A stretch of DNA of 64,000 nt, taken from contig JAEERC010000044.1 of the NCBI GenBank assembly GCA_016285645.1, forward strand, positions 35,040-99,039, in the 5' to 3' direction. The notes under the pieces are model-generated. The model saw only the letters and a list, made by a program, of their open reading frames with translations, was not told the origin of the DNA and made no database searches. A program made the position numbers and the translations under genes. The DNA is from Clostridiaceae bacterium (lineage in GTDB: Bacteria; Bacillota; Clostridia; Oscillospirales; Acutalibacteraceae). Below are positions 1 to 13,569 of the stretch, in pieces (position 1 is the first letter of the stretch; each line of letters starts with the position of its first letter).

Positions 1-477
1 CTTTGTAAGAACAAAATCATAAATAAGGAAAGCCGCGAGACCTATGCCGAGAAGCATCGGAACGGCCGCCAGACCGTAATCCTCAAGCTCGTTAATCTCA
101 AGCCCGATAAGCTTGATCATAAGGAAATATGAAACCGATATAGCCGCCAGGAAGCACACGGATTTGACGATATAGGCGAGAACAGCGGGCATATGCTTTT
201 CGAATACCGCCTTTACAATCGGATAATAGCCGAAAAACGCGGTGTACATTACGGCTACTTCCTTGTCGGCAACAAGAAGCATTGAAAGAATGGCGACGGC
301 GGCATAAACGCCGAAAGCCCATTTTTTATCGATTTCAATTACAATAAGCACAATAAGCGCGCCCGCGGCGGCTGGAAGGGCGTAAGTCAGAAACGGGATA
401 ATCGCCACCGATATAAGCATTACAAGCGAGAGCGCCGCGACAATTCCGCCTATGGCGCATTTTGAACTCTGTTTCAA
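1..477 (-). CDS. Conserved hypothetical multi-pass membrane protein (3'-truncated by window edge)
   Basis: Not in ORF track; read manually: SD GGAGG then TTG at 477, MKQSSKCAIGGIVAALSLVMLISVAIIPFLTYALPAAAG..., open to position 1 with several hydrophobic helices. Confidence 0.75.
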   Translation of the reverse strand, partial: MKQSSKCAIGGIVAALSLVMLISVAIIPFLTYALPAAAGALIVLIVIEIDKKWAFGVYAAVAILSMLLVADKEVAVMYTAFFGYYPIVKAVFEKHMPAVLAYIVKSVCFLAAISVSYFLMIKLIGLEINELEDYGLAAVPMLLGIGLAAFLIYDFVLTK

Positions 478-492
478 AAAAGCACCTCCGGG

Positions 493-1158
493 TCAGCAGC
501 AGTCGTCGCAGTGGCAGCAGTCGTCAAAAGGCCCGAGGTCACAGCACATATCGAGGCAGATAAAGCCCTCGCATATATCGCAGGCGTCACAGTCATCGCA
601 GTCGCAGCCGCAAACATCGCAGTCGCAGCCGGAGTCGTTGCCCGAACTGCTTGAATTTGTATTGTTGTTATTGTTGTAAGTATTGTATCCGCCGGAGTTC
701 GAGTTTTTCCTCGCCTTCGCGGCGTTCTGATAAGCCGTTTTGTATTCCCTGTTCCCCGGCTCTTTATCGTGGGCTTTTTTGAAATTCTTATAGGATTCCT
801 CAAGCCACCCGCGGGAGTGCTGAACTCTTCCTTTAAGATAATACCACTGGGCGTCCCTGCTGTTTTTGGGTATTCCGTCAAGCAGGGTTTCCGCGTCTTC
901 AATTCTGCCCGCGTTTATTCTGCTGACAATATCGGAGTAATCCTGATAATAAGAGTCGTTGTAATTTCCCGATGACCTTGAGGGGGCGGAGGACATTATA
1001 ATCGAATCATACGCCTCGTCGATTTCTCTTATAAGGCGCTCTCTTACACTTGCGTTCTCTATTTCATTGTACTGAGCCAGAAGCGATTTGTATGACGCCT
1101 TTACATTGTCAATGGGCGCGTTTTCGGGCACGCCGAGAATCATATAAGGGCTGCTCAT
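493..1158 (-). CDS. Degenerate J-domain + TPR protein with Cys/Asp-rich C-terminal tail
   Basis: N-terminus PYMILGV...KASY...EIDEAYD resembles a DnaJ domain but has no HPD; AQWYYLKG...EPGNREY is TPR-like; C-terminal CDCDVCGCDCDDC... tail; stop/start overlap with upstream gene. Confidence 0.75.
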   Translation of the reverse strand: MSSPYMILGVPENAPIDNVKASYKSLLAQYNEIENASVRERLIREIDEAYDSIIMSSAPSRSSGNYNDSYYQDYSDIVSRINAGRIEDAETLLDGIPKNSRDAQWYYLKGRVQHSRGWLEESYKNFKKAHDKEPGNREYKTAYQNAAKARKNSNSGGYNTYNNNNNTNSSSSGNDSGCDCDVCGCDCDDCDACDICEGFICLDMCCDLGPFDDCCHCDDCC

Positions 1159-2024
1159 CGTTTTCCTCCCTCCCGTTTTTCATCACTGTATTTTAAAAGA
1201 ACTTTATCGGCGGATTTTTTGAGACCGTAATCAAAAATGTTTTCAAAAATTGTTTTATAACGGCGTATGTTTATTTCATAAAAGGATGCTCTTGCCTCGT
1301 TAATCGTATAATTGAGCGATTGCTTTACGGAATTTACGAAAAGATTTTTATCCTCATTATAAATATCTTTTAACGGGTTGAAATTGCAGCGTCTGATATC
1401 GCTTTCAATATCGTCAGCCGCGTCGATAATATAGACAAATCTGCCTGCCATATAGCCGAATCGCTTTATAGCGTCGGTGTCTGTGCCGTCGCCGAAAAGG
1501 GCGAATATTTCGGAGAGCGCCTTGGCGGACGGGTGTGCCGCTTCATCGAGGGAACAGTCCGGGTTTTCTTCTGTCTCCTTTTGCAGTTTCATTGAACCGC
1601 TTATTATGCTTTCAATATCGGGTGAGAGCCGCTTCGCTTTTTTATGAGCGAAAAAGATATAGGGAAACAGCAAAACGGAAATTATTTTTTTTCCCAATCC
1701 TTTATCGCGCATGTTGTCAATCAGCTTGTAATAGACGGTTATTATCAGGGCGTCGGCGCATTTGTCCGGCAGATGCTTGTCGGAATATTTATGACATTTT
1801 TTAGCGGGATTGTAAGGGCAGCGGCATTTTTCGAACGGAGAGCATTCGGGCTTCAAAGCCGCAACGAACATGGCAAGAAGCGTAAAATCATAGCTTAAAA
1901 ACAGCTGGGCAAAAGGGGAGTATCTTCTGCCGAGATTGCGGCAGAGCGAACAGTAAGCGCCCCTGTAAACCTCATACTCTTTGATTTTGAGTTCCGGCTT
2001 GAAAATTCTGACATAACCGAGCAT
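1155..2024 (-). CDS. DUF5685 family protein
   Basis: N-terminal LGYVR..KPELKIKEYEVYRGAYCSLCRNLGRRY and SYDFTLL motifs recognised as DUF5685-like. Confidence 0.75.
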   Translation of the reverse strand: MLGYVRIFKPELKIKEYEVYRGAYCSLCRNLGRRYSPFAQLFLSYDFTLLAMFVAALKPECSPFEKCRCPYNPAKKCHKYSDKHLPDKCADALIITVYYKLIDNMRDKGLGKKIISVLLFPYIFFAHKKAKRLSPDIESIISGSMKLQKETEENPDCSLDEAAHPSAKALSEIFALFGDGTDTDAIKRFGYMAGRFVYIIDAADDIESDIRRCNFNPLKDIYNEDKNLFVNSVKQSLNYTINEARASFYEINIRRYKTIFENIFDYGLKKSADKVLLKYSDEKREGGKR

Positions 2025-2104
2025 TTTATCACCGATTAAATATTATATCACTATCCTTTAAAAAAATATAGATAATATGTAAATTTTATAAGCGAAAAAA
2101 TAAC

Positions 2105-2144: not shown

Positions 2145-2218
2145 GCGGGTGTAGTTCAACGGTAGAATCCCAGCCTTCCAAGCTGGTCGCGTGGGTTCGA
2201 TTCCCATCACCCGCTCCA
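2145..2218 (+). tRNA. tRNA-Gly(TCC)
   Basis: Cloverleaf GCGGGTG...CACCCGC, anticodon loop CTTCCAA, GGTTCGATTCC T-arm, encoded CCA. Confidence 0.97.
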
Positions 2219-2309: not shown

Positions 2310-2338
2310 TTGACAAAACAAAAACCTTAATATATAAT
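2310..2338 (+). promoter_or_regulatory. Sigma-A promoter of tRNA-Arg-His-Gln cluster
   Basis: TTGACA (2310) -17 bp- TATAAT (2333). Confidence 0.85.
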
Positions 2339-2361: not shown

Positions 2362-2438
<77 letters not shown>

Positions 2439-2441
2439 TAT

Positions 2442-2519
2442 GGTGGTTATAGCTCAGTTGGTTAGAGTGCCAGGTTGTGGCCCTGGAGGTCGTGGGTTCG
2501 ACTCCCACTAACCACCCCA
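2442..2519 (+). tRNA. tRNA-His(GTG)
   Basis: G-1:C73 pair, anticodon loop TTGTGGC, GGTTCGACTCC T-arm, CCA end. Confidence 0.97.
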
Positions 2520-2569: not shown

Positions 2570-2644
2570 TGGGGTGTCGCCAAGCGGTAAGGCAAAGGAC
2601 TTTGACTCCTTCACTCGTGCGTTCGAATCGCGCCACCCCAGCCA
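2570..2644 (+). tRNA. tRNA-Gln(TTG)
   Basis: TGGGGTG...CACCCCA stem, anticodon loop CTTTGAC, CCA end. Confidence 0.95.
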
Positions 2645-2677: not shown

Positions 2678-3346
2678 TTATAACTGATATATTCCCGAAC
2701 GGAGAACGGCGTATTCCATTTCGCCGCAGCGGAAATAAGATTTTACCTCCTCGTTGAAAACCCTGAAGTCCTCAACGGTGTAGTTCCCGAAAGAGATTGA
2801 GCGGATTTTATATGAATACTCGTTGCAGATAAACAGCTTGTTGTTGTAAATCTTGAGGTCTATCGGGTGGCAGAACGCCTTTGTTTTGGGGCCGCCAATG
2901 CGAAGCTCCGTTCTGCCGTGGTCAATTGAGTAGTTTATAACCGCGTTGGCGTCGGGTACGGCGAACCACACATCCCTGCCGTAAACCGCGGGGGAGCAGA
3001 CGGGAGCGCCCTCGTAATCGAGCTCGTCAACATCCGTAAGCTTGCCGTTGCGGACGATTTTTATTGTTCCGTTCGGGTAGGACGCGAGCAGAGCGCCGTC
3101 GTGTAAGGTTACGGTTTTGCAAGTCGCGTAATCGCCCAGCTGGGAGGCGATGTTTCTGCCGTCTCTGCCGTATTTGAAATCTATGTACTGCAGCACATCC
3201 GCCTGGTAGAACTTGTCGTCAACCTGATTGTATCTGTGAAAAACGCCCGCCTGTTTGCCGCTGGAAAGCGTTTCGCGGGCAAGATATATAAAACCGTTTT
3301 TCAACGGAACTATGTCTATCAATTCAGCTTCAATAAGCTTTCGCAA
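2678..3346 (-). CDS. Hypothetical protein, possible beta-propeller (NHL-like)
   Basis: Real start probably TTG at 3346 after GGAGG (the track ORF extends upstream into the 6S RNA); beta-rich repeats such as HPIDLKIYNNKLFICNEY. Confidence 0.65.
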   Translation of the reverse strand: MRKLIEAELIDIVPLKNGFIYLARETLSSGKQAGVFHRYNQVDDKFYQADVLQYIDFKYGRDGRNIASQLGDYATCKTVTLHDGALLASYPNGTIKIVRNGKLTDVDELDYEGAPVCSPAVYGRDVWFAVPDANAVINYSIDHGRTELRIGGPKTKAFCHPIDLKIYNNKLFICNEYSYKIRSISFGNYTVEDFRVFNEEVKSYFRCGEMEYAVLRSGIYQL

Positions 3347-3360
3347 ATCAATTCCTCCAA

Positions 3361-3548
3361 AAAAACGCCCCGCCTTGCCGATGCGCCGACAGTAACCTGC
3401 TCTCAGCAGGTGGGTGCCTCCCGGTGATTTCGCGCTCCCTTCGTCCGCCTGAGCGGGAGGTCTGCAGTCCCTCACCGGAGACCGGCTCCCTATAAATTAC
3501 GTGTTGGGTTACTTCTTGGTCGCATTTATCGCACAAGGCAGGGTCTTT
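3361..3548 (-). ncRNA. ssrS: 6S RNA
   Basis: Minus strand ~185 nt rod: 5' GACCCTGCCTTGTGCG pairs with 3' GCATCGGCAAGGCGGGG; contains GGGAGCC and GGCACCCACCTGCTGAGAGCAGGTT, matching the conserved Firmicute 6S core. Confidence 0.85.
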
Positions 3549-3549
3549 A

Positions 3550-3855
3550 TTATTCTGTTTCCTCGTCGTCAAAGTCAAACATTTCGGAGAGACGCTCCTC
3601 AAATATCTGACCTATTTCGTTGAATTCATCGTCGTCTTCAATCGGCTCAAGATATGTTTCGCCGTTTTCCTCGCTGACCTTTAAAATGATTAACTCGCCG
3701 TCGTCCTCAAGAATCTTTTCGGCGTCGTCATAGAGCGGAAGAAGAGCCACATATCTGCCGTCGTCGGTCTCGATTCTGTCAAGTTCCTCAAAAACGTGCT
3801 CTTTGCCGTCCTCGTCAACTACGCTGACTATATCGGGATTGTATTCTTCGTCCAT
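3550..3855 (-). CDS. DUF1292 domain acidic protein
   Basis: DIVSVVDEDGKEHVFEELD...YVALLP...ELIILKV...YLEPIEDDDEF signature. Confidence 0.85.
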   Translation of the reverse strand: MDEEYNPDIVSVVDEDGKEHVFEELDRIETDDGRYVALLPLYDDAEKILEDDGELIILKVSEENGETYLEPIEDDDEFNEIGQIFEERLSEMFDFDDEETE

Positions 3856-4001: not shown

Positions 4002-5360
4002 ATGCAGAATATATCCGTTGAAAATCTCATAAACAAAGGCGCGTTCGAATGTCCCTGCGGCAAGACGCATTCAGCCCATCTCAAAAAGGCGGTAATAAGC
4101 CGCGGAGCCGTTTCGCTCATGCCCGGATTCATTAAAGAATACGGCTGTAAAAAGCCCTATGTTTTAGCCGATATAAACACCGTAAAAGCGGGCGAAAAAG
4201 CGCTCGAAGTTCTTGATGAAGCGGGAATCGGATATATAAAATATGTATATAACGAAAAGCATATTGAGCCCGATGACACATCGGTAGGCAAAGCGTTTCT
4301 CAATTTCAGTTATTCCTGCGATATCGTTGTCGGAATCGGCTCGGGCGTAATTAACGATATAGGCAAAATCGTTTCGAGAATGACGGGTCTGCCCTATATT
4401 ATTGTGGGCACGGCGCCTTCCATGGACGGTTACGCCTCCTCGACATCTTCGGTTATAAGAGACGGTCTGAAAGTCTCCGTTGACAGCAGATGCCCCGATA
4501 TTGTAATAGGCGATCTCGATATTCTCTGCAAAGCGCCCGCCTATATGGCGGCTGCGGGTCTCGGCGATATGCTCGCTAAATACATAAGCGTTTGCGAGTG
4601 GAGAATCGGCAACGTTGTTACGGGCGAATACTACTGCGAGGAGGTCGCCTCGATTATCCGCTACGCCCTCAATAAATGCGTTGAAGGCGCGGACAAACTC
4701 ACCGACGGCGATGAGCAAACAATCAAAAGCATTATGGAGGGGCTCGTGATTTCCGGTATAGCCGCGGATTACGCCGGAGTGAGCAGACCGGTCTCCGGTG
4801 TGGAACATTATTTTTCACATATCTGGGATATGAGAAACGCCGAATTCGGTACCCCGATGGATCTTCACGGAATACAGTGCGGCATAGGTACGCTTCTCGC
4901 GGTGAAAGGATATAACCGCCTGCTGTCGCTTTCTCCCGACAAAGAAAAGGCGGCGGAAAAATTCAGCTCATTCGACATCGACGCCTGGCGTGAAAAAATA
5001 AGCGGTTATCTCGGCTCGGCAGGGGAGCAGATGATTAAAAACACCCGTACCTGCGAGCTTTACAACGGTGAAAAATTCAACGATAGAATTGAGAATATCT
5101 GCGATAATTGGAATATAATCAAAGAAATCGTTTCGGAGGAAATCCCGCGGTATGAAACTGTTCTCAATATCTTAAAAACAATCAAAGCCCCGGTAAGCTC
5201 CGACGAAATCGGCATTCCCTCAGCAACAAATCCGCTGACTTTCAGAATGACGAAGGATATACGCGACAAATATATTCTTTCGACGCTTCTGTTTGATATG
5301 GGACTTCTCGATGAAACCGCAGAAGATGTTTTCTGCGCGGGAATTGATAATGAGCGGTAA
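4002..5360 (+). CDS. sn-glycerol-1-phosphate dehydrogenase (AraM/EgsA type)
   Basis: N-terminal CPCGKTH, GSGVINDIGK, TAPSMDGYAS, SGVEHYFSHIWDM and LHGIQCGIG motifs. Confidence 0.88.
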   Translation: MQNISVENLINKGAFECPCGKTHSAHLKKAVISRGAVSLMPGFIKEYGCKKPYVLADINTVKAGEKALEVLDEAGIGYIKYVYNEKHIEPDDTSVGKAFLNFSYSCDIVVGIGSGVINDIGKIVSRMTGLPYIIVGTAPSMDGYASSTSSVIRDGLKVSVDSRCPDIVIGDLDILCKAPAYMAAAGLGDMLAKYISVCEWRIGNVVTGEYYCEEVASIIRYALNKCVEGADKLTDGDEQTIKSIMEGLVISGIAADYAGVSRPVSGVEHYFSHIWDMRNAEFGTPMDLHGIQCGIGTLLAVKGYNRLLSLSPDKEKAAEKFSSFDIDAWREKISGYLGSAGEQMIKNTRTCELYNGEKFNDRIENICDNWNIIKEIVSEEIPRYETVLNILKTIKAPVSSDEIGIPSATNPLTFRMTKDIRDKYILSTLLFDMGLLDETAEDVFCAGIDNER

Positions 5361-5390
5361 ATGTGATATTGTAATGAAAGAGGTGTTAAT

Positions 5391-5840
5391 ATGAACAATA
5401 TTGAACTTAAAGCGTACAGAGCGAAGGAAATAAGTTTTGTCAACAAAGTTGAGAACAACACGAAAATCAATTTTGAAAACAAGTATTCCTACAATGTTAA
5501 CTATTCAAGGCAGAACATATGCAAGGGCGAAATGAAGGTTTCGGCAATTTCAAAGGAATTCCCCGACAAATTCAATATTACCGTGGTTGTGGAGGGCATA
5601 TTCGGCTTTGACCCCGAAGTGCCGAAGGAAAAAATACATGTTGAATCCTTCAAACAGCTTTTCCCTTACACCAAGGCGCTTATTTCCACCGTCACCGCGA
5701 ACGCGGGAATACCCGCGCTGTTCATACCCACAATCGATATTGAAAAATCCAGCATTTACAAATATGATGTAAACAACAGTTTCATAAACCCCAACAAACG
5801 CAGGGAAAACGAAGAAGACGAAGAAAACGACGACGAATAA
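5391..5840 (+). CDS. SecB-like chaperone
   Basis: ITVVVEGIFGF...QLFPYTKALISTVTANAGIPALFIPTID matches the SecB-fold C-terminal pattern (lFPY.R..is..t...g.P.l.lP). Confidence 0.65.
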   Translation: MNNIELKAYRAKEISFVNKVENNTKINFENKYSYNVNYSRQNICKGEMKVSAISKEFPDKFNITVVVEGIFGFDPEVPKEKIHVESFKQLFPYTKALISTVTANAGIPALFIPTIDIEKSSIYKYDVNNSFINPNKRRENEEDEENDDE

Positions 5841-5851
5841 AGGAGAGAATT

Positions 5852-6385
5852 ATGGGAAACATCTGGCACAGCATTAACCCGAAAAGAATCACACCCGAGG
5901 ATTTCATAGCGGTTATCGAAATCGCTCAGGGCAGCAAGAAAAAATACGAACTTGACAAAGAAACCGGTCACATCATTCTTGACCGTATTCTTTACACGGC
6001 AACCCATTATCCCGCCAATTACGGGCTTATTCCGCGCACTTTGGGCGATGACGGCGACCCGCTCGATGTTATGGTGGTGTGCAGCGAAAGTCTTGAGCCG
6101 ATGACTCTTGTGCGCTGCTATCCCATAGGCGTTATAAAGATGATTGACCAGGGAAAGAGCGACGAAAAAATAATAGCCATTCCGTTCAACGATCCCACTT
6201 ACAACACCTATCACAGCATTACCGAGCTTCCCCACCACGTGTTTGACGAGATGCAGCATTTCTTTACCGTCTATAAAAATCTTGAGGGCAAGGAAACCGC
6301 CGTTGACGCCGTTCAGGACAGGGACACCGCACTTGAAATCATAAAGAAAAGCATAGATCTTTATGTGGAGAATTACTGCAGATAA
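5852..6385 (+). CDS. ppa: Family I inorganic pyrophosphatase
   Basis: KKKYELDKETG, YPANYGLIPRTLGDDGDPLDVMV, DEKIIA motifs. Confidence 0.95.
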   Translation: MGNIWHSINPKRITPEDFIAVIEIAQGSKKKYELDKETGHIILDRILYTATHYPANYGLIPRTLGDDGDPLDVMVVCSESLEPMTLVRCYPIGVIKMIDQGKSDEKIIAIPFNDPTYNTYHSITELPHHVFDEMQHFFTVYKNLEGKETAVDAVQDRDTALEIIKKSIDLYVENYCR

Positions 6386-6579
6386 TTTCCGCATCGGCAT
6401 AATAACGGAACATGATTCCGGTTAAAACAAAATATTGTTGCCTATTTTGTAAATTTTCACAAATTTAACATATATATAGTGGTATTATTTTACTGTAATT
6501 TTTGATATTTTATTTGACTATTATATTATATTTATGATAAAATCAATTTATAAATTCATTCGGTAACGGAGAAACGAAA

Positions 6580-7068
6580 ATGAAAAAAATTGCAGTCATT
6601 ATGGGCAGCGACAGCGACCTGCCCGTTGTACAGAAAGCCATTGATGTTCTCGACGAATACGATATTCCCTATGAGGTGCATGTCTACTCGGCGCACAGAA
6701 CTCCCGAACAGGCGAGAGATTTCTCATTGAACGCCCGCAAAAACGGATTCGGCGCCATTATCGCCGCGGCAGGCAAGGCGGCTCATCTCGCGGGAGCGCT
6801 CGCCGCTAACTCGACTCTGCCTGTTATCGGTATTCCCGTAAAATCTTCAACGCTTGACGGCCTTGACGCTCTGCTTTCAACCGTGCAGATGCCCTCGGGC
6901 ATTCCGGTAGCGACGGTTGCCATTGACGGAGCCGCGAACGCCGCTCTGCTCGCGATTGAGATTCTCGCCGTGAGCGACCCGGTGCTCGCTTCAAAGCTCG
7001 ACAAAGCGAGGGAAGAAGCCGCGCAGAAGGTTCTTGAAAAGGACCGCGGCATGGCGGACAGGTTTTAA
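6580..7068 (+). CDS. purE: N5-CAIR mutase
   Basis: [38 protein letters not shown]. Confidence 0.97.
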
Positions 7069-7254
7069 TTTTTCAAAAGGGGGCGGTCGGTATGAACTCA
7101 GTTGTTTCAAAATGCTGTTTCATTGTGCCTTTCTGCCCTTGTGCCACTATGCTTTCCCGCAATCTTTCAAATTATAATCTTGAATCTTACAGCCGTTCAG
7201 TCTGCGACTAAGCAGATTTTAAACGGCTGTTTATTTATATCGGAGGTAATTGTT

Positions 7255-8679
7255 ATGGGCGGATTTTTCGGCGCCGTATCGGAGAGAGACGTAATACTTG
7301 ATGTGTTTTTCGGAACGGACTATCACTCACATCTCGGCACACTCAGGGGCGGTATTGCCGCTTTGACCGAGAACGGCTTTGACAGGCATATTCACAATAT
7401 TGAGAACACGCCTTTCAGAACAAAACTCGAAAAGGACATTATGGATATCCGGGGCAGGGCGTGCATCGGCTGCATCAGCGACACGGACCCTCAGCCGATT
7501 ATCATCAGGTCGCACCTCGGCACCTACGCCATAAGCACAATCGGCATAATCAGGAACATAAAGGAACTGACAGCCGAGATTGTTGACAAATCAAATATTC
7601 ATTTCAGCGGTATGAGCGGCGGCAAAATCAACACATCCGAGCTGACCGCGGCGCTTATAAATACAAAGGCGGATTTCGTCGAGGGAATAAAGTTCGCTCA
7701 CGATAAAATCGAGGGCTCGATTTCGATTCTTATTCTCACCGATAAATACGAAATTATTGCCGCGAGGGATAAATCCGGCAGACTGCCGATTCTTGTGGGA
7801 AAGGACGAGCACGGCTACTGCGTGTCGTTTGAATCCTTCGCCTATGAAAAACTGGGATATAAGGATGAACACGAGCTGGGCTGCGGAGAAGTTGTGAAAA
7901 TAACAGCCGACAAGCTTGAGGTTCTGTCGCCTCCCAACAAATGCAAAAAGAGAATCTGCTCCTTCCTCTGGACTTATTACGGCTACCCGAACTCGCACTA
8001 TGAAGGCGTGAATGTTGAGGTTATGAGATACCGCAACGGCGAGATTATGGCAAACGCCGACAAAGAAAAGGGCGTTGCGCAGAATATAGACTATGTCTGC
8101 GGCGTTCCCGATTCCGGTCTTCCGCACGCAATCGGCTATTCAAACGCCAGCGTTGTTCCGTTCGCGAGACCGTTTATCAAATACACGCCTACCTGGCCGA
8201 GAAGCTTTATGCCCACAAACCAGAATGTGCGCAACCAGGTTGCGAAAATGAAACTTATTCCCGTAACGGAACTGATTAACGGCAAAAAACTTTTATTTGT
8301 TGACGACAGCATAGTAAGAGGTACACAGCTTCGCGAAACGGTTGAGTTCCTCTATGAAAACGGGGCGAAGGAAGTTCACATGCGCTCCGCCTGCCCGCCG
8401 ATTATGTTCGGCTGCAAATACCTCAATTTCTCCGCCTCCACCTCCGAAATGGAACTCATAGCGAGAAGAACAATAGCGGAGCTTGAGGGCGATGAGGGCG
8501 AAAAGCACCTCGATGAGTACGCCGACGCCTCATCGGAGCGCGGCAAGAAACTGCGCGAGACAATCGCCGAAAAACTCAAACTCGATTCACTCGAATACCA
8601 GACTCTTGAAGGTCTTATTGAGGCAATAGGGCTTGACAGAGACGAAATATGCACATATTGCTGGGACGGAAGGGAGTAA
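7255..8679 (+). CDS. purF: Amidophosphoribosyltransferase (Fe-S type; N-terminal Cys replaced by Gly)
   Basis: Start ATG 7255 after GGAGG; [21 protein letters not shown] loop, C-terminal CTYCW. Confidence 0.93.
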
Positions 8680-8683
8680 TGAA

Positions 8684-9727
8684 ATGATAAACAATTCAAA
8701 ATCCGAAAGCTACGCGGCCGCGGGCGTTGACATCACCGCGGGCTACAAAGCCGTTGAACTTATGAAGAGCCATATAGCCAGAACCCTTTCGGGCGGCGCT
8801 CTTTCGGACATAGGCGGTTTCGGCGGCCTTTTCGAACTTGATTTGACGGGAATCAATCACCCCGTTCTTGTAAGCGGTACGGACGGCGTGGGAACAAAGC
8901 TGAAACTCGCTTTTCTTGCTGACAAACACGACACAGTCGGTATCGACTGCGTGGCAATGTGCGTAAACGATATTATCTGCTGCGGAGCAAAGCCGCTCTT
9001 CTTCCTCGATTATATTGCCTGCGGCAAGAACTATCCCGAGAAAATCGCTTCCATCGTTTCGGGCGTGTGCGAGGGCTGTGTTCAGTCCGGCTGCTCGCTT
9101 ATAGGCGGCGAAACGGCGGAAATGCCCGGCTTTTATCCGGTTGACGAATATGACCTCGCCGGATTTTCCGTTGGCGTGGTTGATAAGGAAAAGGTTATTG
9201 ACAACAAAAAGATGATTCCCGGCGATGTGATTATCGCCCTTCCCTCAAGCGGTGTTCATTCAAACGGCTTTTCGCTTGTGAGAAAAGTTTTCGATGTTGA
9301 AAACAGCGATATCAAATCCCCGGTTGACGCCCTCGGCGGCAAATCAATAGCCGAAGCGCTCCTCACACCGACAAAGATTTATGTCAAACCCGTTCTCGCC
9401 CTTCTTGAAGAGGTTGAGGTCAAAGGCATTTCGCACATCACGGGCGGCGGATTCTATGAGAATATTCCGAGAAGCATTCCCGACGGCCTCGGCGCTAAAA
9501 TAGAAAAATCCTCAATAAAAGTTCTCCCGATATTCGATCTCATCGCCAAAACCGGCAATATTCCCGAGCGCGATATGTTCAACACATTCAATATGGGTGT
9601 CGGAATGAGCATTGTCGTTGCCGGGGAGAACGCTCAGAAGGCGGTTGAAATACTCAAATTAAACGGCGAGGACGCGTACATCATCGGCGAAATCGTCAGC
9701 TCCGATAATAAAATCGAGCTTGTTTAA
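8684..9727 (+). CDS. purM: Phosphoribosylformylglycinamidine cyclo-ligase (AIR synthetase)
   Basis: [37 protein letters not shown]. Confidence 0.97.
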
Positions 9728-9732
9728 CCGGG

Positions 9733-10356
9733 GTGAATGCCATGGAAAAAGCGAGAATAGCGGTTATGGTTTCGGGCGGCGGCACAAATCTTCAGGCGCT
9801 TATCGACGCCCGGATTTCCGGCATTATAAAAAGCGGCGAAATCTGCCTTGTTATTTCTAACAGCCACACCGCCTTCGCCCTCGAAAGAGCGAGAAAAGCG
9901 GGAATAAAAACATTCAGCGTTACCAAAAAGGAACTCGGCTCGCAGGAGGCGTTTGAAAAAGCGGTTATTGACGAGCTCGAAAAGGAAAAAATCGATCTGA
10001 TTATACTTGCGGGATTCCTCAGCATCTTAAGTAAGGATTTCACCGACAGATACAAGAGAAGAATAATCAACATTCATCCCTCGCTTATCCCCTCGTTCTG
10101 CGGCGACGGATATTACGGACTCAAGGTTCACGAGGCGGCTCTCGCGAAGGGCGTAAAAGTAACCGGCGCAACCGTTCACTATGTAAATGAAATTCCCGAC
10201 GGGGGAGAGATAATTTTACAGAAGGCGGTTTACATCCGCAAAAACGACACTGCCGAAACTTTACAGCGCAGGGTTATGGAACAGGCGGAGTGGAAAATTC
10301 TTCCCGCGGCCGCCGAAATCTGTTCAAAGGAAATAATTAACAGTAAGGAGAAATAA
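9733..10356 (+). CDS. purN: Phosphoribosylglycinamide formyltransferase
   Basis: SGGGTNLQAL, INIHPSLIPSF, TGATVHYV, DGGEII (start may be ATG 9742). Confidence 0.95.
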   Translation: MNAMEKARIAVMVSGGGTNLQALIDARISGIIKSGEICLVISNSHTAFALERARKAGIKTFSVTKKELGSQEAFEKAVIDELEKEKIDLIILAGFLSILSKDFTDRYKRRIINIHPSLIPSFCGDGYYGLKVHEAALAKGVKVTGATVHYVNEIPDGGEIILQKAVYIRKNDTAETLQRRVMEQAEWKILPAAAEICSKEIINSKEK

Positions 10357-10358
10357 AT

Positions 10359-11078
10359 ATGGGCATCTATGATATCAACAAAATTTCGGACCTTTTAAGC
10401 GTCAACACCTATCCCGGCAGAGGAATAGTCATCGGCAAAACTCCCGACGGCAAAAAGGCGGCTTTCGCCTATTTCATCATGGGCAGAAGCGAAAACAGCC
10501 GCAACAGAATATTCACCGAAAAAGACGGCGCCGTTTACACCGAGCCCTTCGATGTTTCGAAGGTTGAGGACCCGAGTCTTATAATTTACGCGGCCGTCCG
10601 TTCAATCGGCAATAAAACAATAGTCACAAACGGCGATCAGACCGACACGATTTATGATTACATAAAGGACGGCAAAACATTCGAGCAGGCGCTTGATACA
10701 AGATGCTTTGAACCCGACGGCCCGAACTGGACCCCGAGAATCAGCGGACTTCTTACTTTTGAAAACGGTGAATTCACCTATAAAATGAGCATTCTCAAGA
10801 GCGCCGACGCGGAGGGCTCGGCCTGCAACAGATTCACTTACAACTACGCTCCTCTCAGCGGTCTCGGCCATTTCATTCACACCTACAACTGTGACGGCAA
10901 TCCCATTCCCACCTTCTCGAAGGAACCCGAGCGAGTCACTGTATCGGATGACATAGATGAATACACAACGGATATCTGGAACTCCCTCAACGAGGCGAAC
11001 AAGATTTCGTTATATGTTAGTTTTATTGACCTTGAAACAGGCAAGGCGGACAGCAGATTAATCAATAAAAACGCTTGA
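10359..11078 (+). CDS. Stand-alone IMP cyclohydrolase (archaeal PurO-like family)
   Basis: YPGRGIV, AYFIMGRSENSRNR, TNGDQTD, FEPDGPNWTPRISG motifs; position in pur operon. Confidence 0.88.
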   Translation: MGIYDINKISDLLSVNTYPGRGIVIGKTPDGKKAAFAYFIMGRSENSRNRIFTEKDGAVYTEPFDVSKVEDPSLIIYAAVRSIGNKTIVTNGDQTDTIYDYIKDGKTFEQALDTRCFEPDGPNWTPRISGLLTFENGEFTYKMSILKSADAEGSACNRFTYNYAPLSGLGHFIHTYNCDGNPIPTFSKEPERVTVSDDIDEYTTDIWNSLNEANKISLYVSFIDLETGKADSRLINKNA

Positions 11079-11097
11079 TTATAAAGGAGACAGAGCA

Positions 11098-12282
11098 ATG
11101 AAAGAGTTTGAACTTAAATACGGTTGCAACCCCAACCAGAAGCCGTCGAAAATCTATATGAAAAACGGCGGCGACCTTCCCATTGATATTCTCAGCGGCA
11201 GACCGGGCTATATCAATTTCCTCGACGCCTTCAATTCCTGGCAGCTTGTAAAGGAACTCAAAGAGGCGCTCGGACTTCCCGCCGTTACATCCTTCAAACA
11301 CGTGAGCCCCACCTCGGCGGCTGTTGGTATTCCGCTTTCGGACACACTCAAAAAGGCGTGCTTTGTCGATGACATTGAGGGTCTTGATGATTCACCGCTC
11401 GCCTGCGCTTACGCGAGAGCCAGGGGAACGGACAGAATGTGCTCGTTCGGCGACTGGGTTGCCCTTTCGGATGTCTGCGATGTCACAACAGCCCTCCTTG
11501 TAAAGCGCGAGGTGTCCGACGGCATTATCGCCCCAGGATATGAACCCGAGGCGCTTGAGATTCTCAAATCCAAAAGAAACGGCAATTACAATATTGTCAA
11601 AATCGACCCCGATTATGTTCCCGAGGTTCAGGAGACCAAGCAGGTTTTCGGCATCACATTCGAGCAGGGGAGAAACAATTTCAAAATCGACAGGGAACTG
11701 CTTTCCAATGTTGTTACCGCGAATAAGGAATTACCCGAAAGCGCTGTAAGAGACCTTATTATTTCACTAATCACTCTTAAATACACGCAGTCCAATTCCG
11801 TCTGCTACGCTGTTGACGGCCAGGCAATCGGTGTGGGCGCGGGTCAGCAGTCCAGAATCCACTGCACACGCCTTGCCGGCACAAAGGCGGACACCTGGTT
11901 TTTACGCCAGCACGAAAAGGTTCTCAATCTTCCTTTCCGTGACGATATAAAACGCCCCGACAGAGACAATGTTATTGACGGCTACATCAATAAAAATGAG
12001 GAGGATGTGTGCGCCGACGGTATCTGGCAGAAATATTTCAAAACACAGCCCGCTCCTCTCACCGACGAAGAGGCGAAGGCGTTCCTCGCCACCCGTGACG
12101 GCGTTGCCCTCGGCAGCGACGCGTTCTTCCCGTTCAGCGACAATATCGAGCGCGCTCACAAGAGCGGCGTTAAATACATCGCCGAGCCGGGCGGCTCAAT
12201 CAGGGATGACGCCGTTATTGAGTGCTGCGACAAATACGGTATGGCAATGGCGTTTACCGGAATGAGACTTTTCCATCACTGA
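11098..12282 (+). CDS. purH: AICAR transformylase (PurH formyltransferase domain only)
   Basis: LKYGCNPNQ, SFKHVSP, KYTQSNSV, GAGQQSRIHC, SDAFFPF, PGGSIRD, RLFHH; lacks the MGS-like IMPCH N-domain. Confidence 0.92.
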   Translation: MKEFELKYGCNPNQKPSKIYMKNGGDLPIDILSGRPGYINFLDAFNSWQLVKELKEALGLPAVTSFKHVSPTSAAVGIPLSDTLKKACFVDDIEGLDDSPLACAYARARGTDRMCSFGDWVALSDVCDVTTALLVKREVSDGIIAPGYEPEALEILKSKRNGNYNIVKIDPDYVPEVQETKQVFGITFEQGRNNFKIDRELLSNVVTANKELPESAVRDLIISLITLKYTQSNSVCYAVDGQAIGVGAGQQSRIHCTRLAGTKADTWFLRQHEKVLNLPFRDDIKRPDRDNVIDGYINKNEEDVCADGIWQKYFKTQPAPLTDEEAKAFLATRDGVALGSDAFFPFSDNIERAHKSGVKYIAEPGGSIRDDAVIECCDKYGMAMAFTGMRLFHH

Positions 12283-12297
12283 TATCGGAGACTGATT

Positions 12298-13569
12298 ATG
12301 AACATTATTGTTGTAGGCGGCGGCGGCCGCGAACACGCCATTATAAAGTCGCTTAAAAAGAATAAAGAAATTGAAACGATATTCGCTCTGCCCGGCAACG
12401 GCGGAATGAAGGACGACGCTGTTCTTGTAAATATTTCCGCCACCGACATTGACGGTATAGTAGATTTCGCCGTAAATAATAACATCGGCTTTGCTGTTGT
12501 GGCTCCCGACGACCCGCTCGTTCTCGGCGCTGTTGACGCATTGAACGCCAAGGGTATTCCCTGCTTCGGCCCCGAAAAGAAGGCGGCGATTATCGAGGGC
12601 AGTAAGGTCTTTTCGAAGAACCTTATGAAAAAATACGGCATTCCCACCGCGAAATACGAGGTGTTTGACAATGCCGCGGACGCTCTCAGTTATCTCGAAA
12701 CCGCTCCCGTTCCCACCGTTGTTAAGGCGGACGGTCTCGCTCTGGGCAAAGGCGTTCTCATCTGCAACACCCGCGATGAAGCGAAAAACGCCGTAAAAAC
12801 AATTATGGAGGACAAGGTTTTCGGAGCAAGCGGTAACAGCATTGTTATTGAGGAATTCCTTACGGGCCCCGAGGTCTCCGTGCTCTCGTTTACGGACGGT
12901 AAAACCGTTGTTCCGATGATTTCCTCAATGGACCATAAACGCGCGAGAGACAACGACGAGGGTCTGAACACCGGCGGTATGGGTACGGTCGCTCCAAATC
13001 CCCATTACACAAAAGCCGTTGCCGAAGAATGTATGAATAAGATTTTTATTCCCACAATTGAGGCAATGAACAAAGAGGGCAGAACATTCAGAGGCTGCCT
13101 CTATTTCGGACTTATGATTACACCCGACGGTCCGAAGGTCATTGAATATAACTGCAGGTTCGGCGACCCCGAAACACAGGTTGTGCTTCCTCTTCTCAAA
13201 ACAGACCTTTTCGAGATTATGAAGGCGGTCAGCGAGGAGAGACTTTCGGATATAAATGTTGAATTCAGCGATGAATACGCCTGCTGTGTCATAATGGCTT
13301 CCGACGGGTATCCTCAGAAATATGAGAAGGGCTTTGAAATAAAAGTCAATGATAACTTTGACGCCGAACTGTTTATTGCGGGCGCAAAAGAACAGGACGG
13401 AAAACTGCTTACAAACGGCGGCAGAGTATTGGGCGTTACCGCAGTCGCCGGCACTCTTCCCGAGGCGGTTGAAAAGGCGTATAAAGAGGTTGAAAACGTA
13501 AGTTTTGACAACGCCTATTACCGCAGTGATATCGGCAAAAGAGCGCTCGAAGCATTAAAGGAGGGATAA
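12298..13569 (+). CDS. purD: Phosphoribosylamine-glycine ligase
   Basis: GGGGREHA, VVKADGLALGKGV, NTGGMG, EYNCRFGDPE, YYRSDIG. Confidence 0.97.
   Translation: MNIIVVGGGGREHAIIKSLKKNKEIETIFALPGNGGMKDDAVLVNISATDIDGIVDFAVNNNIGFAVVAPDDPLVLGAVDALNAKGIPCFGPEKKAAIIEGSKVFSKNLMKKYGIPTAKYEVFDNAADALSYLETAPVPTVVKADGLALGKGVLICNTRDEAKNAVKTIMEDKVFGASGNSIVIEEFLTGPEVSVLSFTDGKTVVPMISSMDHKRARDNDEGLNTGGMGTVAPNPHYTKAVAEECMNKIFIPTIEAMNKEGRTFRGCLYFGLMITPDGPKVIEYNCRFGDPETQVVLPLLKTDLFEIMKAVSEERLSDINVEFSDEYACCVIMASDGYPQKYEKGFEIKVNDNFDAELFIAGAKEQDGKLLTNGGRVLGVTAVAGTLPEAVEKAYKEVENVSFDNAYYRSDIGKRALEALKEG

Follow-up and report, generated by a model that had tools for sequence, protein, structure and literature searches.

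At the start of the window analysed here (64,000 nucleotides of contig JAEERC010000044.1, positions 35,040 to 99,039, from the Acutalibacteraceae assembly GCA_016285645.1), three minus-strand genes lie head to tail in a tight operon, running from DUF5685 through a J-like protein to a membrane protein. DUF5685 is an already catalogued, uncharacterised family which is very widespread and occurs in gut and rumen Clostridia. It was noted in C. difficile R20291 by an in-silico survey that proposed no function (PMC9403866), and we found no other paper naming it in the literature searched. We find that the three genes travel together as a module, that DUF5685 is predicted to adopt an isoprenoid-synthase fold, and that its J-like partner carries a conserved cysteine module which may be its substrate. 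The operon comprises the following features.

1155..2024, minus strand: DUF5685 gene, 289 amino acids, Pfam PF18937
493..1158, minus strand: gene of the J-like/TPR-like/Cys-tail protein, 221 amino acids, its start overlapping the DUF5685 stop
1..477, minus strand: membrane protein gene, TTG start at 477, running past the window start
2029-2033, minus strand: GGTGA ribosome-binding site of DUF5685, read from the sequence
2042..2050, minus strand: candidate extended -10 element TGaTATAAT, 18 nucleotides 5' of the ATG of DUF5685, found by reading the sequence

The original prediction had described three translationally coupled genes. The three genes and their tight arrangement stand, with the qualification that only the first junction overlaps (ATGA, 1155-1158), the J-like stop being separated from the membrane-gene TTG (477) by a 15-nucleotide spacer that carries GGAGG. 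Of the membrane gene, 159 of about 177 codons fall within the window and about 18 are missing, orthologues having 177 amino acids. Since only divergent transfer RNA (tRNA) genes lie upstream and the TGaTATAAT element sits at 2050-2042, the operon appears to start at DUF5685; a promoter pattern scan reported another, weaker match in the stretch holding this element. Public sequencing runs with the window's sequence are DNA metagenomes from bovine and goat gut.

Conservation of the three-gene set

A scan of one genome per species returned 327 relatives of DUF5685, from which 80 loci, all from Acutalibacteraceae or other uncultured Clostridia, were kept for gene-order counts; 314 relatives of the J-like protein were found. 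In 78 of the 80 loci DUF5685 has a J-like gene as its neighbour; 77 also have the membrane gene and hence the whole triad, and two of the incomplete loci end at a contig edge just past DUF5685. The gaps between the genes are mostly -17 to +13 nucleotides at the first junction and 7 to 28 at the second, and the membrane gene, which begins with TTG in 31 of 77 loci, is the best conserved of the three (60-74% identity among close relatives). The triad is kept in the same order in all seven more distant lineages, whose flanking genes are different and whose DUF5685 proteins are about 30-40% identical to the window's; there it consists of DUF5685, a DnaJ protein of 200-218 amino acids and a protein of 164-181 amino acids without a Pfam match. 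This co-occurrence goes far beyond chance, and the three genes are a conserved, self-contained module of Clostridia. Gene-neighbourhood conservation, which had been suggested as a check on the original prediction, comes out in its favour.

In six of the seven distant lineages (L081/L082, L083, L084-L087) the triad lies directly 3' of uvrB-uvrA, and in two of these the DUF5685 start lies at the uvrA stop or one base ahead of it (6000-6001 in L081/L082; 6001 in L083). This arrangement suggests co-transcription with nucleotide-excision-repair genes in those lineages and may reflect a stress or SOS link or merely an old synteny. The sugar genes conserved downstream of the triad in the close relatives (GH109-like, BadF-type kinase, GH4) were considered as parts of the module and set aside; they are absent from the distant lineages, and their association is one of synteny only.

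Predicted fold and motifs of DUF5685

The window's DUF5685 matches Pfam PF18937 with an E-value of 1.8e-69 and 234.6 bits (cut-off 26.7), its residues 1-272 covering positions 1-270 of the 272-position profile. The family is large, with 4952 clusters at 50% identity reaching E<=1e-3, 1052 of them at E<=1e-30. Residue conservation was assessed in 18 diverse sequences at 29-43% identity and is given in window numbering: C25, C28, C69, D46, D103, D107, K129, E152, D160, D201, D205, D209 and N216 are invariant in all 18. The two Cys motifs and two Asp-rich motifs to which the original prediction had drawn attention are features of the family as a whole and lie as follows.

Residues 24-28; 1941..1955, minus strand: YCSLC motif (C25, C28) in helix 1, half of a putative metal site
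Residues 67-77; 1794..1826, minus strand: CRCPYNPAKKC beta-hairpin (C69, C77), second half of a putative four-Cys site
Residues 100-107; 1704..1727, minus strand: first Asp motif KLIDNMRD (D103, N104, D107), at the C-terminal end of helix 84-106
Residues 196-209; 1398..1439, minus strand: second Asp motif FVYIIDAADDIESD (D201, D205, D209), beginning at the C-terminal end of helix 183-204

C77, the fourth cysteine of the putative site, is present within three positions in 17 of the 18 diverse members. The second Asp motif is followed by an FNP motif that contains N216, and the family consensus reads YYKxLDNLxD for the first motif and Y..DA.DD...D..G.FNP for the second. The canonical pairing of DDxx(D,E) with DDxxD or NSE/DTE is absent; in its place DUF5685 has D103-N-x-x-D107 and D201-A-A-D-D205-x-x-x-D209, variant motifs at helix ends that are equivalent in topology.

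An AlphaFold2 model of DUF5685, built from a 35-sequence alignment, has a predicted local distance difference test score (pLDDT) of 89.7 and a predicted template modelling score of 0.88. It is all-helical apart from one beta-hairpin (65-79), formed by strands 65-68 and 76-79 and bearing C69 and C77. When the model was compared with the PDB using Foldseek, all 50 best matches were isoprenoid-fold enzymes, nearly all of them trans-prenyl diphosphate synthases (polyprenyl, farnesyl, octaprenyl) and the rest MoeN5, HpnC and a UbiA homologue, with probabilities of about 1.0, TM-scores of up to 0.60 (mostly 0.4-0.6), root-mean-square deviations (rmsd) of 5-8 A, identities of 9-16% and E-values of only 4e-3 to 0.2. 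The best structural matches are trans-isoprenyl diphosphate synthases and MoeN5 (PDB 4jyx, 5zlf, 1rqj, 5b0k). DUF5685 shares with them a body of about ten helices, two of which, three helices apart, carry an Asp-rich motif at their C-terminal end; exactly three helices separate 84-106 and 183-204 in the model. This helix-end arrangement of D103/D107 and D201/D205 we take to correspond to that of farnesyl-diphosphate synthase, where helix D bears the first Asp-rich motif and helix H the second. DUF5685 differs from these enzymes in its 9-16% identity, in having DNxxD and DAxDDxxxD instead of DDxxD twice, and in that one N-terminal helix is apparently replaced by the Cys hairpin.

On the strength of this model, DUF5685 is predicted to have a class-I isoprenoid-synthase fold, which supports the original prediction of a fold typical of Mg- and diphosphate-using isoprenoid synthases or prenyltransferases. 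The assignment rests on predicted structure and motif topology and not on sequence homology, because the sequence-level tests were negative. None of the 18 diverse members matched the isoprenoid Pfam families polyprenyl_synt, SQS_PSY or terpene_synth at E-values up to 10, and hhalign gave no signal against E. coli IspA/IspB (probability 0.3%). Single-sequence and profile searches of the PDB returned only weak collagenase matches over 60-80 residues, which we judged spurious.

The closest parallel in the motifs is offered by the class IB large-terpene synthases (BalTS and B. subtilis YtpB; PMC5939612), a bacterial class-I alpha-fold family that lacks DDxxD and NSE/DTE. Its motifs are DYLDNLxD and DY(F,L,W)IDxxED, and BalTS requires every Asp in them. 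With its xYKxLDNLxD, DUF5685 keeps two of the three Asp of their first motif, the first Asp being absent; at their second it has D-x3-D-x3-D followed by G.xN. For comparison, 53 class IB genes were fetched from metagenomes by the DYLDNLxD pattern, and 49 were used in hhalign against 389 DUF5685 sequences. The result was not significant (probability 1.2%, P=0.046, 63 aligned columns), and in the best local alignment, weak as it is, D201, D205 and D209 fall on all three Asp, and N216 on the Asn, of D-x3-D-x3-D...N in class IB motif 2. DUF5685 differs from class IB in the spacing of its motifs (98 residues instead of about 164) and in its extra four-Cys hairpin; BalTS is outside the 50 best PDB fold matches, and linkage of class IB genes to a J-protein is not known. 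All 53 class IB (YtpB/BalTS-like) genes, drawn from very diverse metagenomes (L092-L211), carry DY(F/L/W)IDxxED about 164 residues downstream, and their recovery by the DYLDNLxD pattern fits the claim that this class is widespread (PMC5939612).

The J-like protein and the membrane protein

The second gene encodes three recognisable parts, with an Asn-rich linker between the second and the third.

Residues ~1-52; 1003..1158, minus strand: J-like domain without the His-Pro-Asp (HPD) motif, AQYNEIEN where orthologues have KYHPDN
Residues ~81-150; 709..918, minus strand: TPR-like helical unit, DAQWYYLKG...RGWLEE...F..A...P.N..Y, with sub-threshold TPR_19, TPR_2 and AimR matches
496..627, minus strand: acidic Cys-rich C-terminal tail ending in -CC, 44 amino acids with 16 Cys (36%), 14 Asp/Glu and no Lys/Arg

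With the DnaJ Pfam profile the window protein reaches 21.5 bits, short of the cut-off of 27.8, which one relative in the clade passes at 28.3. Among the 120 closest relatives HPD occurs once; most have Y-Q-(D/N/E)-x at this place, and the window has Y-N-E-I. An alignment of relatives shows the rest of the J-like region to be well conserved despite the loss. All seven distant orthologues, by contrast, keep HPD, as K(K/F)(Y/F)HPD, in a canonical J domain; the TPR-like unit and the Cys tail come after it as in the window's clade, and the proteins are annotated with PF00226. The original prediction that the J domain has lost HPD is therefore right for the window and does not extend to the family. 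Judged by these sequences, the loss is derived in the window's clade, the family being ancestrally a true J-protein and this lineage's member a J-like derivative; the H-to-Q change carried by most of the clade is equivalent to H33Q, the classical loss-of-function substitution of DnaJ. The module in this lineage probably no longer depends on J-domain activation of DnaK.

The TPR-like unit, which is among the best-conserved parts of the protein, is found consistently across orthologues, always below threshold (TPR_19 at 23.0 bits with a cut-off of 25; TPR_2 at 13.6-20.2 bits with a cut-off of 27), and amounts to one or two repeats. The tail that follows is usually about 28 amino acids long, with ten Cys at a fixed spacing, C-x2-C-x2-C-x4-C-x2-CCC-x-C-x7-CC, and the consensus G-C-S-G-C-D-x-C-x-G-L-(L/I)-C-A-D-C-C-C-E-C-(F/M)-G-G-D-L-I-x-C-C. 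In 115 of the 120 closest relatives -CC is the exact C-terminal end, and the module is kept from Acutalibacteraceae to lineages with no more than about 30-40% identity in DUF5685. The window tail is an expanded, more acidic variant of it, in which two core Cys positions are lost and six others gained, with a Cys-Asp-rich stretch added on the N-terminal side of the core and a further HCDDCC on its C-terminal side. An acidic tail of 44 amino acids had been described correctly at the outset, its Cys count being 16 and not 15. The Cys spacing matched no known Fe-S or Zn-finger signature. We also considered the tail as a precursor of a ribosomally synthesised and post-translationally modified peptide (RiPP) and rejected this, the core being highly conserved instead of variable and carried on a folded protein of 200 amino acids. 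Literature searches found nothing specific on this J-protein architecture.

One distant locus, L087, departs from the others in several ways. Its J-protein (6004-6618) has a divergent tail, …CLNLCQTWMCLECCCNCCDL, which lacks GGDLIxCC and ends in -CCDL; its DUF5685 (5001-6053) contains an insertion of about 60 Lys/Arg/Glu-rich amino acids after the second Asp motif and ahead of the last helices; and a rhomboid protease gene lies downstream.

Turning to the membrane protein, no Pfam or NCBIfam match was obtained for 24 members and no sequence match in the PDB; matches to DUF2232 and CdaA_N were at chance level only and were discarded. Family invariants are E48, E73, G83-Y-Y-P..K89...E93, K105, Y117 and Y153-D154. 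The fold was modelled on an orthologue, P0517, that is 72% identical (AlphaFold2 pLDDT 83), and the only coherent Foldseek matches in the PDB were S components of energy-coupling factor (ECF) transporters, namely TmRibU, ThiT, 4huq_S and 4hzu_S, with TM-scores of 0.47-0.59, probabilities of 0.35-1.0 and weak E-values of 0.13-5. In the model, the protein looks like an ECF S-component-like six-helix fold, which would speak for substrate capture rather than for the export role that had been entertained for it. It resembles the S components RibU, ThiT and FolT/HmpT in size (about 177 amino acids) and in its six predicted helical segments; it differs from them in lacking a sequence-family match, and no ECF module genes are linked to it, the flanks of the loci examined containing no ecfA, ecfA' or ecfT. 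Group II S components are normally unlinked to ECF genes, so the missing linkage is compatible with membership. A role as an ICMT- or Rce1-like CaaX-processing enzyme was rejected, as the protein has no such Pfam or fold match and no invariant His.

Possible functions of the module

Of the explanations we considered, the one ranked first, with a probability of roughly 30%, is that DUF5685 S-prenylates the tail of the J-protein and thereby anchors it at the membrane. With D103/D107 and D201/D205/D209 coordinating Mg2+, DUF5685 would bind a prenyl diphosphate via the metal and would ionise it in the class I manner. At least one thiol in the partner's C-terminal Cys module would accept the prenyl group, the terminal -CC being the most plausible site, and the product would be a thioether-lipidated J-protein residing at the membrane beside the S-component-like protein. 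In most lineages the HPD-bearing J domain would then recruit DnaK to the membrane; in the window's lineage, where HPD is replaced and the tail expanded and acidified, the J-like protein would probably still dock and still be processed, without activating DnaK. We favour this reading on account of an enzyme-substrate gene coupling like that of ComQ/ComX, the strictly terminal -CC and the existence of lipidated eukaryotic J-proteins. In eukaryotes, J-proteins carry lipids on Cys residues that are C-terminal or clustered, as in the farnesylation of Ydj1/DNAJA1 and the palmitoylation of CSP-alpha, and Rab GTPases ending in -CC are doubly geranylgeranylated. ComQ, PalQ and StheQ, for their part, are recognisable prenyl diphosphate synthase homologues with DDxxD-type motifs. 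These isoprenyl-diphosphate-synthase-fold enzymes prenylate adjacently encoded polypeptides (PMC5331326, PMC10853753, bioRxiv 10.64898/2026.08.29.745113), the enzyme gene standing immediately upstream of a polypeptide that is modified near its C-terminus, and they are the only known case of the fold acting on polypeptides. Their targets are Trp residues of short secreted peptides, pheromones or RiPPs, whereas the candidate acceptor here is a Cys module on a cytoplasmic J-protein of 190-220 amino acids. It seems unlikely that the wider proposal holds in full, namely that Clostridia own a protein S-prenylation system, unrelated to the eukaryotic CaaX/Rab prenyltransferases, in which DUF5685 prenylates a -CC-ending Cys module to give a lipid-anchored Hsp70 co-chaperone working with the S-component-like membrane protein.

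Several points weigh against S-prenylation of the tail. Modification by DUF5685 is a proposal only, and we know of no precedent for S-prenylation of a bacterial protein by a class-I-fold enzyme. DUF5685 has no significant sequence homology to any isoprenoid enzyme family, and the Foldseek E-values of its model against the PDB are marginal, at 4e-3 to 0.2. Its four-Cys site looks structural and so gives no support to a catalytic Zn-thiolate mechanism, and the part assigned to the S-component-like membrane protein in the prenylation scheme is ad hoc. Furthermore, all ten Cys of the tail are conserved together with their spacing and the intervening Gly, Asp and Glu, near-invariant even across distant lineages, a pattern seen more typically in folded Zn or Fe-S knots than in lipid anchors. 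This last point leads directly to the explanation that we rank second and hold with still less confidence: the ten-Cys module may fold around Zn or one or more Fe-S clusters in a metallothionein- or ferredoxin-like way, making the J-protein a metallochaperone, cluster carrier or redox sensor. Where HPD is intact, it would use DnaK, as HscB uses HscA, its client for loading or repair being the four-Cys site of DUF5685 or a different one, while DUF5685 itself would act on a different, non-protein substrate. Such a reading would suit the conserved four-Cys site of DUF5685 and the composition of the window tail, 36% Cys and without basic residues; a stress-linked role would also fit the position of the triad directly after uvrA in six of seven distant lineages, abutting or overlapping it in at least two. 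J domains fused to metal-binding Cys domains are known from DnaJ-Fer (PMC3564930) and Dph4 (PMC3339945; Fe or Fe-S), which, like the lipidated Ydj1/DNAJA1 and CSP-alpha/DNAJC5, combine a J domain with C-terminal or clustered Cys. Unlike all of these, the present family is bacterial, runs in the order J domain, TPR-like unit, Cys module, shows no sequence similarity to them in the Cys part and, in the window copy, lacks HPD. Neither the strict -CC end nor the pairing with genes for an enzyme of prenyl-diphosphate type and an S-component-like membrane protein would be explained by a metal domain; the spacing is unlike any Fe-S or Zn-finger signature that we could name, and the loss of two core Cys and gain of six in the window tail would be odd for a precise cluster site.

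The remaining explanations turn on DUF5685 itself. It could be a terpene synthase or prenyltransferase of a non-canonical kind, comparable to class IB enzymes or MoeN5, that makes or modifies an isoprenoid lipid or prenylated cofactor, with the S-component-like protein binding, importing or presenting the product and the J-protein serving as an assembly or regulatory factor tethered by its TPR-like unit and tail. This we consider doubtful and place third, even though the fold matches are prenyl-chain enzymes that include the lipid-acceptor prenyltransferase MoeN5 and a UbiA homologue, and the motifs are similar to those of class IB synthases, whose substrates are C25-C35 diphosphates. The membrane protein would fit in as well, its best matches being the high-affinity small-molecule-binding S components RibU and ThiT and its helices holding invariant charged and aromatic residues (E48, E73, GYYP..K, K105, Y153-D154), as expected for a ligand site; yet the E-values of these matches are weak (0.13 or worse), the obligate J-protein with its Cys-rich tail is left without a reason, and the loci examined have neither ecfA, ecfA' or ecfT nor other isoprenoid genes linked to the triad. 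A polyprenyl synthase gene was found neither in the window nor in the fetched loci. Finally, DUF5685 might be no enzyme at all but a helical scaffold with no more than a likeness to the isoprenoid-synthase fold, such as a regulator or adaptor binding the J-protein, with its Asp residues holding a structural metal or a partner. The missing sequence similarity to isoprenoid enzyme families, Foldseek E-values of 4e-3 or worse, TM-scores mostly of 0.4-0.6 and rmsd of 5-8 A would all agree with this. Two observations make it the least probable of the four: nine polar residues (D46, D103, D107, K129, E152, D160, D201, D205, D209) and N216 are invariant over 29-43% identity, as is typical of an active site, and all 50 top structural matches are isoprenoid-enzyme folds and not assorted helical bundles.

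Nothing in the literature searched appears to describe the fold assigned to DUF5685, its class-IB-like motifs, the obligate triad, the HPD loss of this lineage or the S-component-like partner. Taken together, the fold prediction, the co-encoded J-protein and membrane protein and the HPD loss turn DUF5685 into a testable system. If the tail is prenylated, the module would represent the first bacterial protein S-prenylation pathway and a new means of placing DnaK at membranes; if the tail binds metal, a new J-protein-linked metallochaperone; and if DUF5685 is a terpene synthase, a further non-canonical class beside those mined via predicted structures (PMC11234867).

Genomic surroundings

Divergent from the operon, four tRNA genes occupy the plus strand within 2105-2644 of the window. 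Beyond them, a GTG-started open reading frame of 265 amino acids (2678-3475, minus strand), for which Pfam and NCBIfam returned no match, separates the tRNA cluster from a DUF1292 gene (3550-3855). The flanking genes that follow (4002-13569, plus strand) are housekeeping genes.

2105-2133 and 2310-2338, plus strand: two perfect sigma-70 consensus promoters, TTGACA-17-TATAAT
2145-2218, plus strand: tRNA Gly-TCC
2219-2249: strong terminator hairpin 3' of tRNA-Gly
2362-2438, plus strand: tRNA Arg-TCT
2443-2519, plus strand: tRNA His-GTG
2570-2644, plus strand: tRNA Gln-TTG
4002-5360, plus strand: Fe-ADH-family protein
5391-5840, plus strand: open reading frame of 149 amino acids without annotation, with an acidic C-terminus
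5852-6385, plus strand: inorganic pyrophosphatase
6580-7068 (purE-like) and onward, plus strand: purine operon, continuing with amidotransferase, purM, purN, IMP cyclohydrolase, AICARFT and purD

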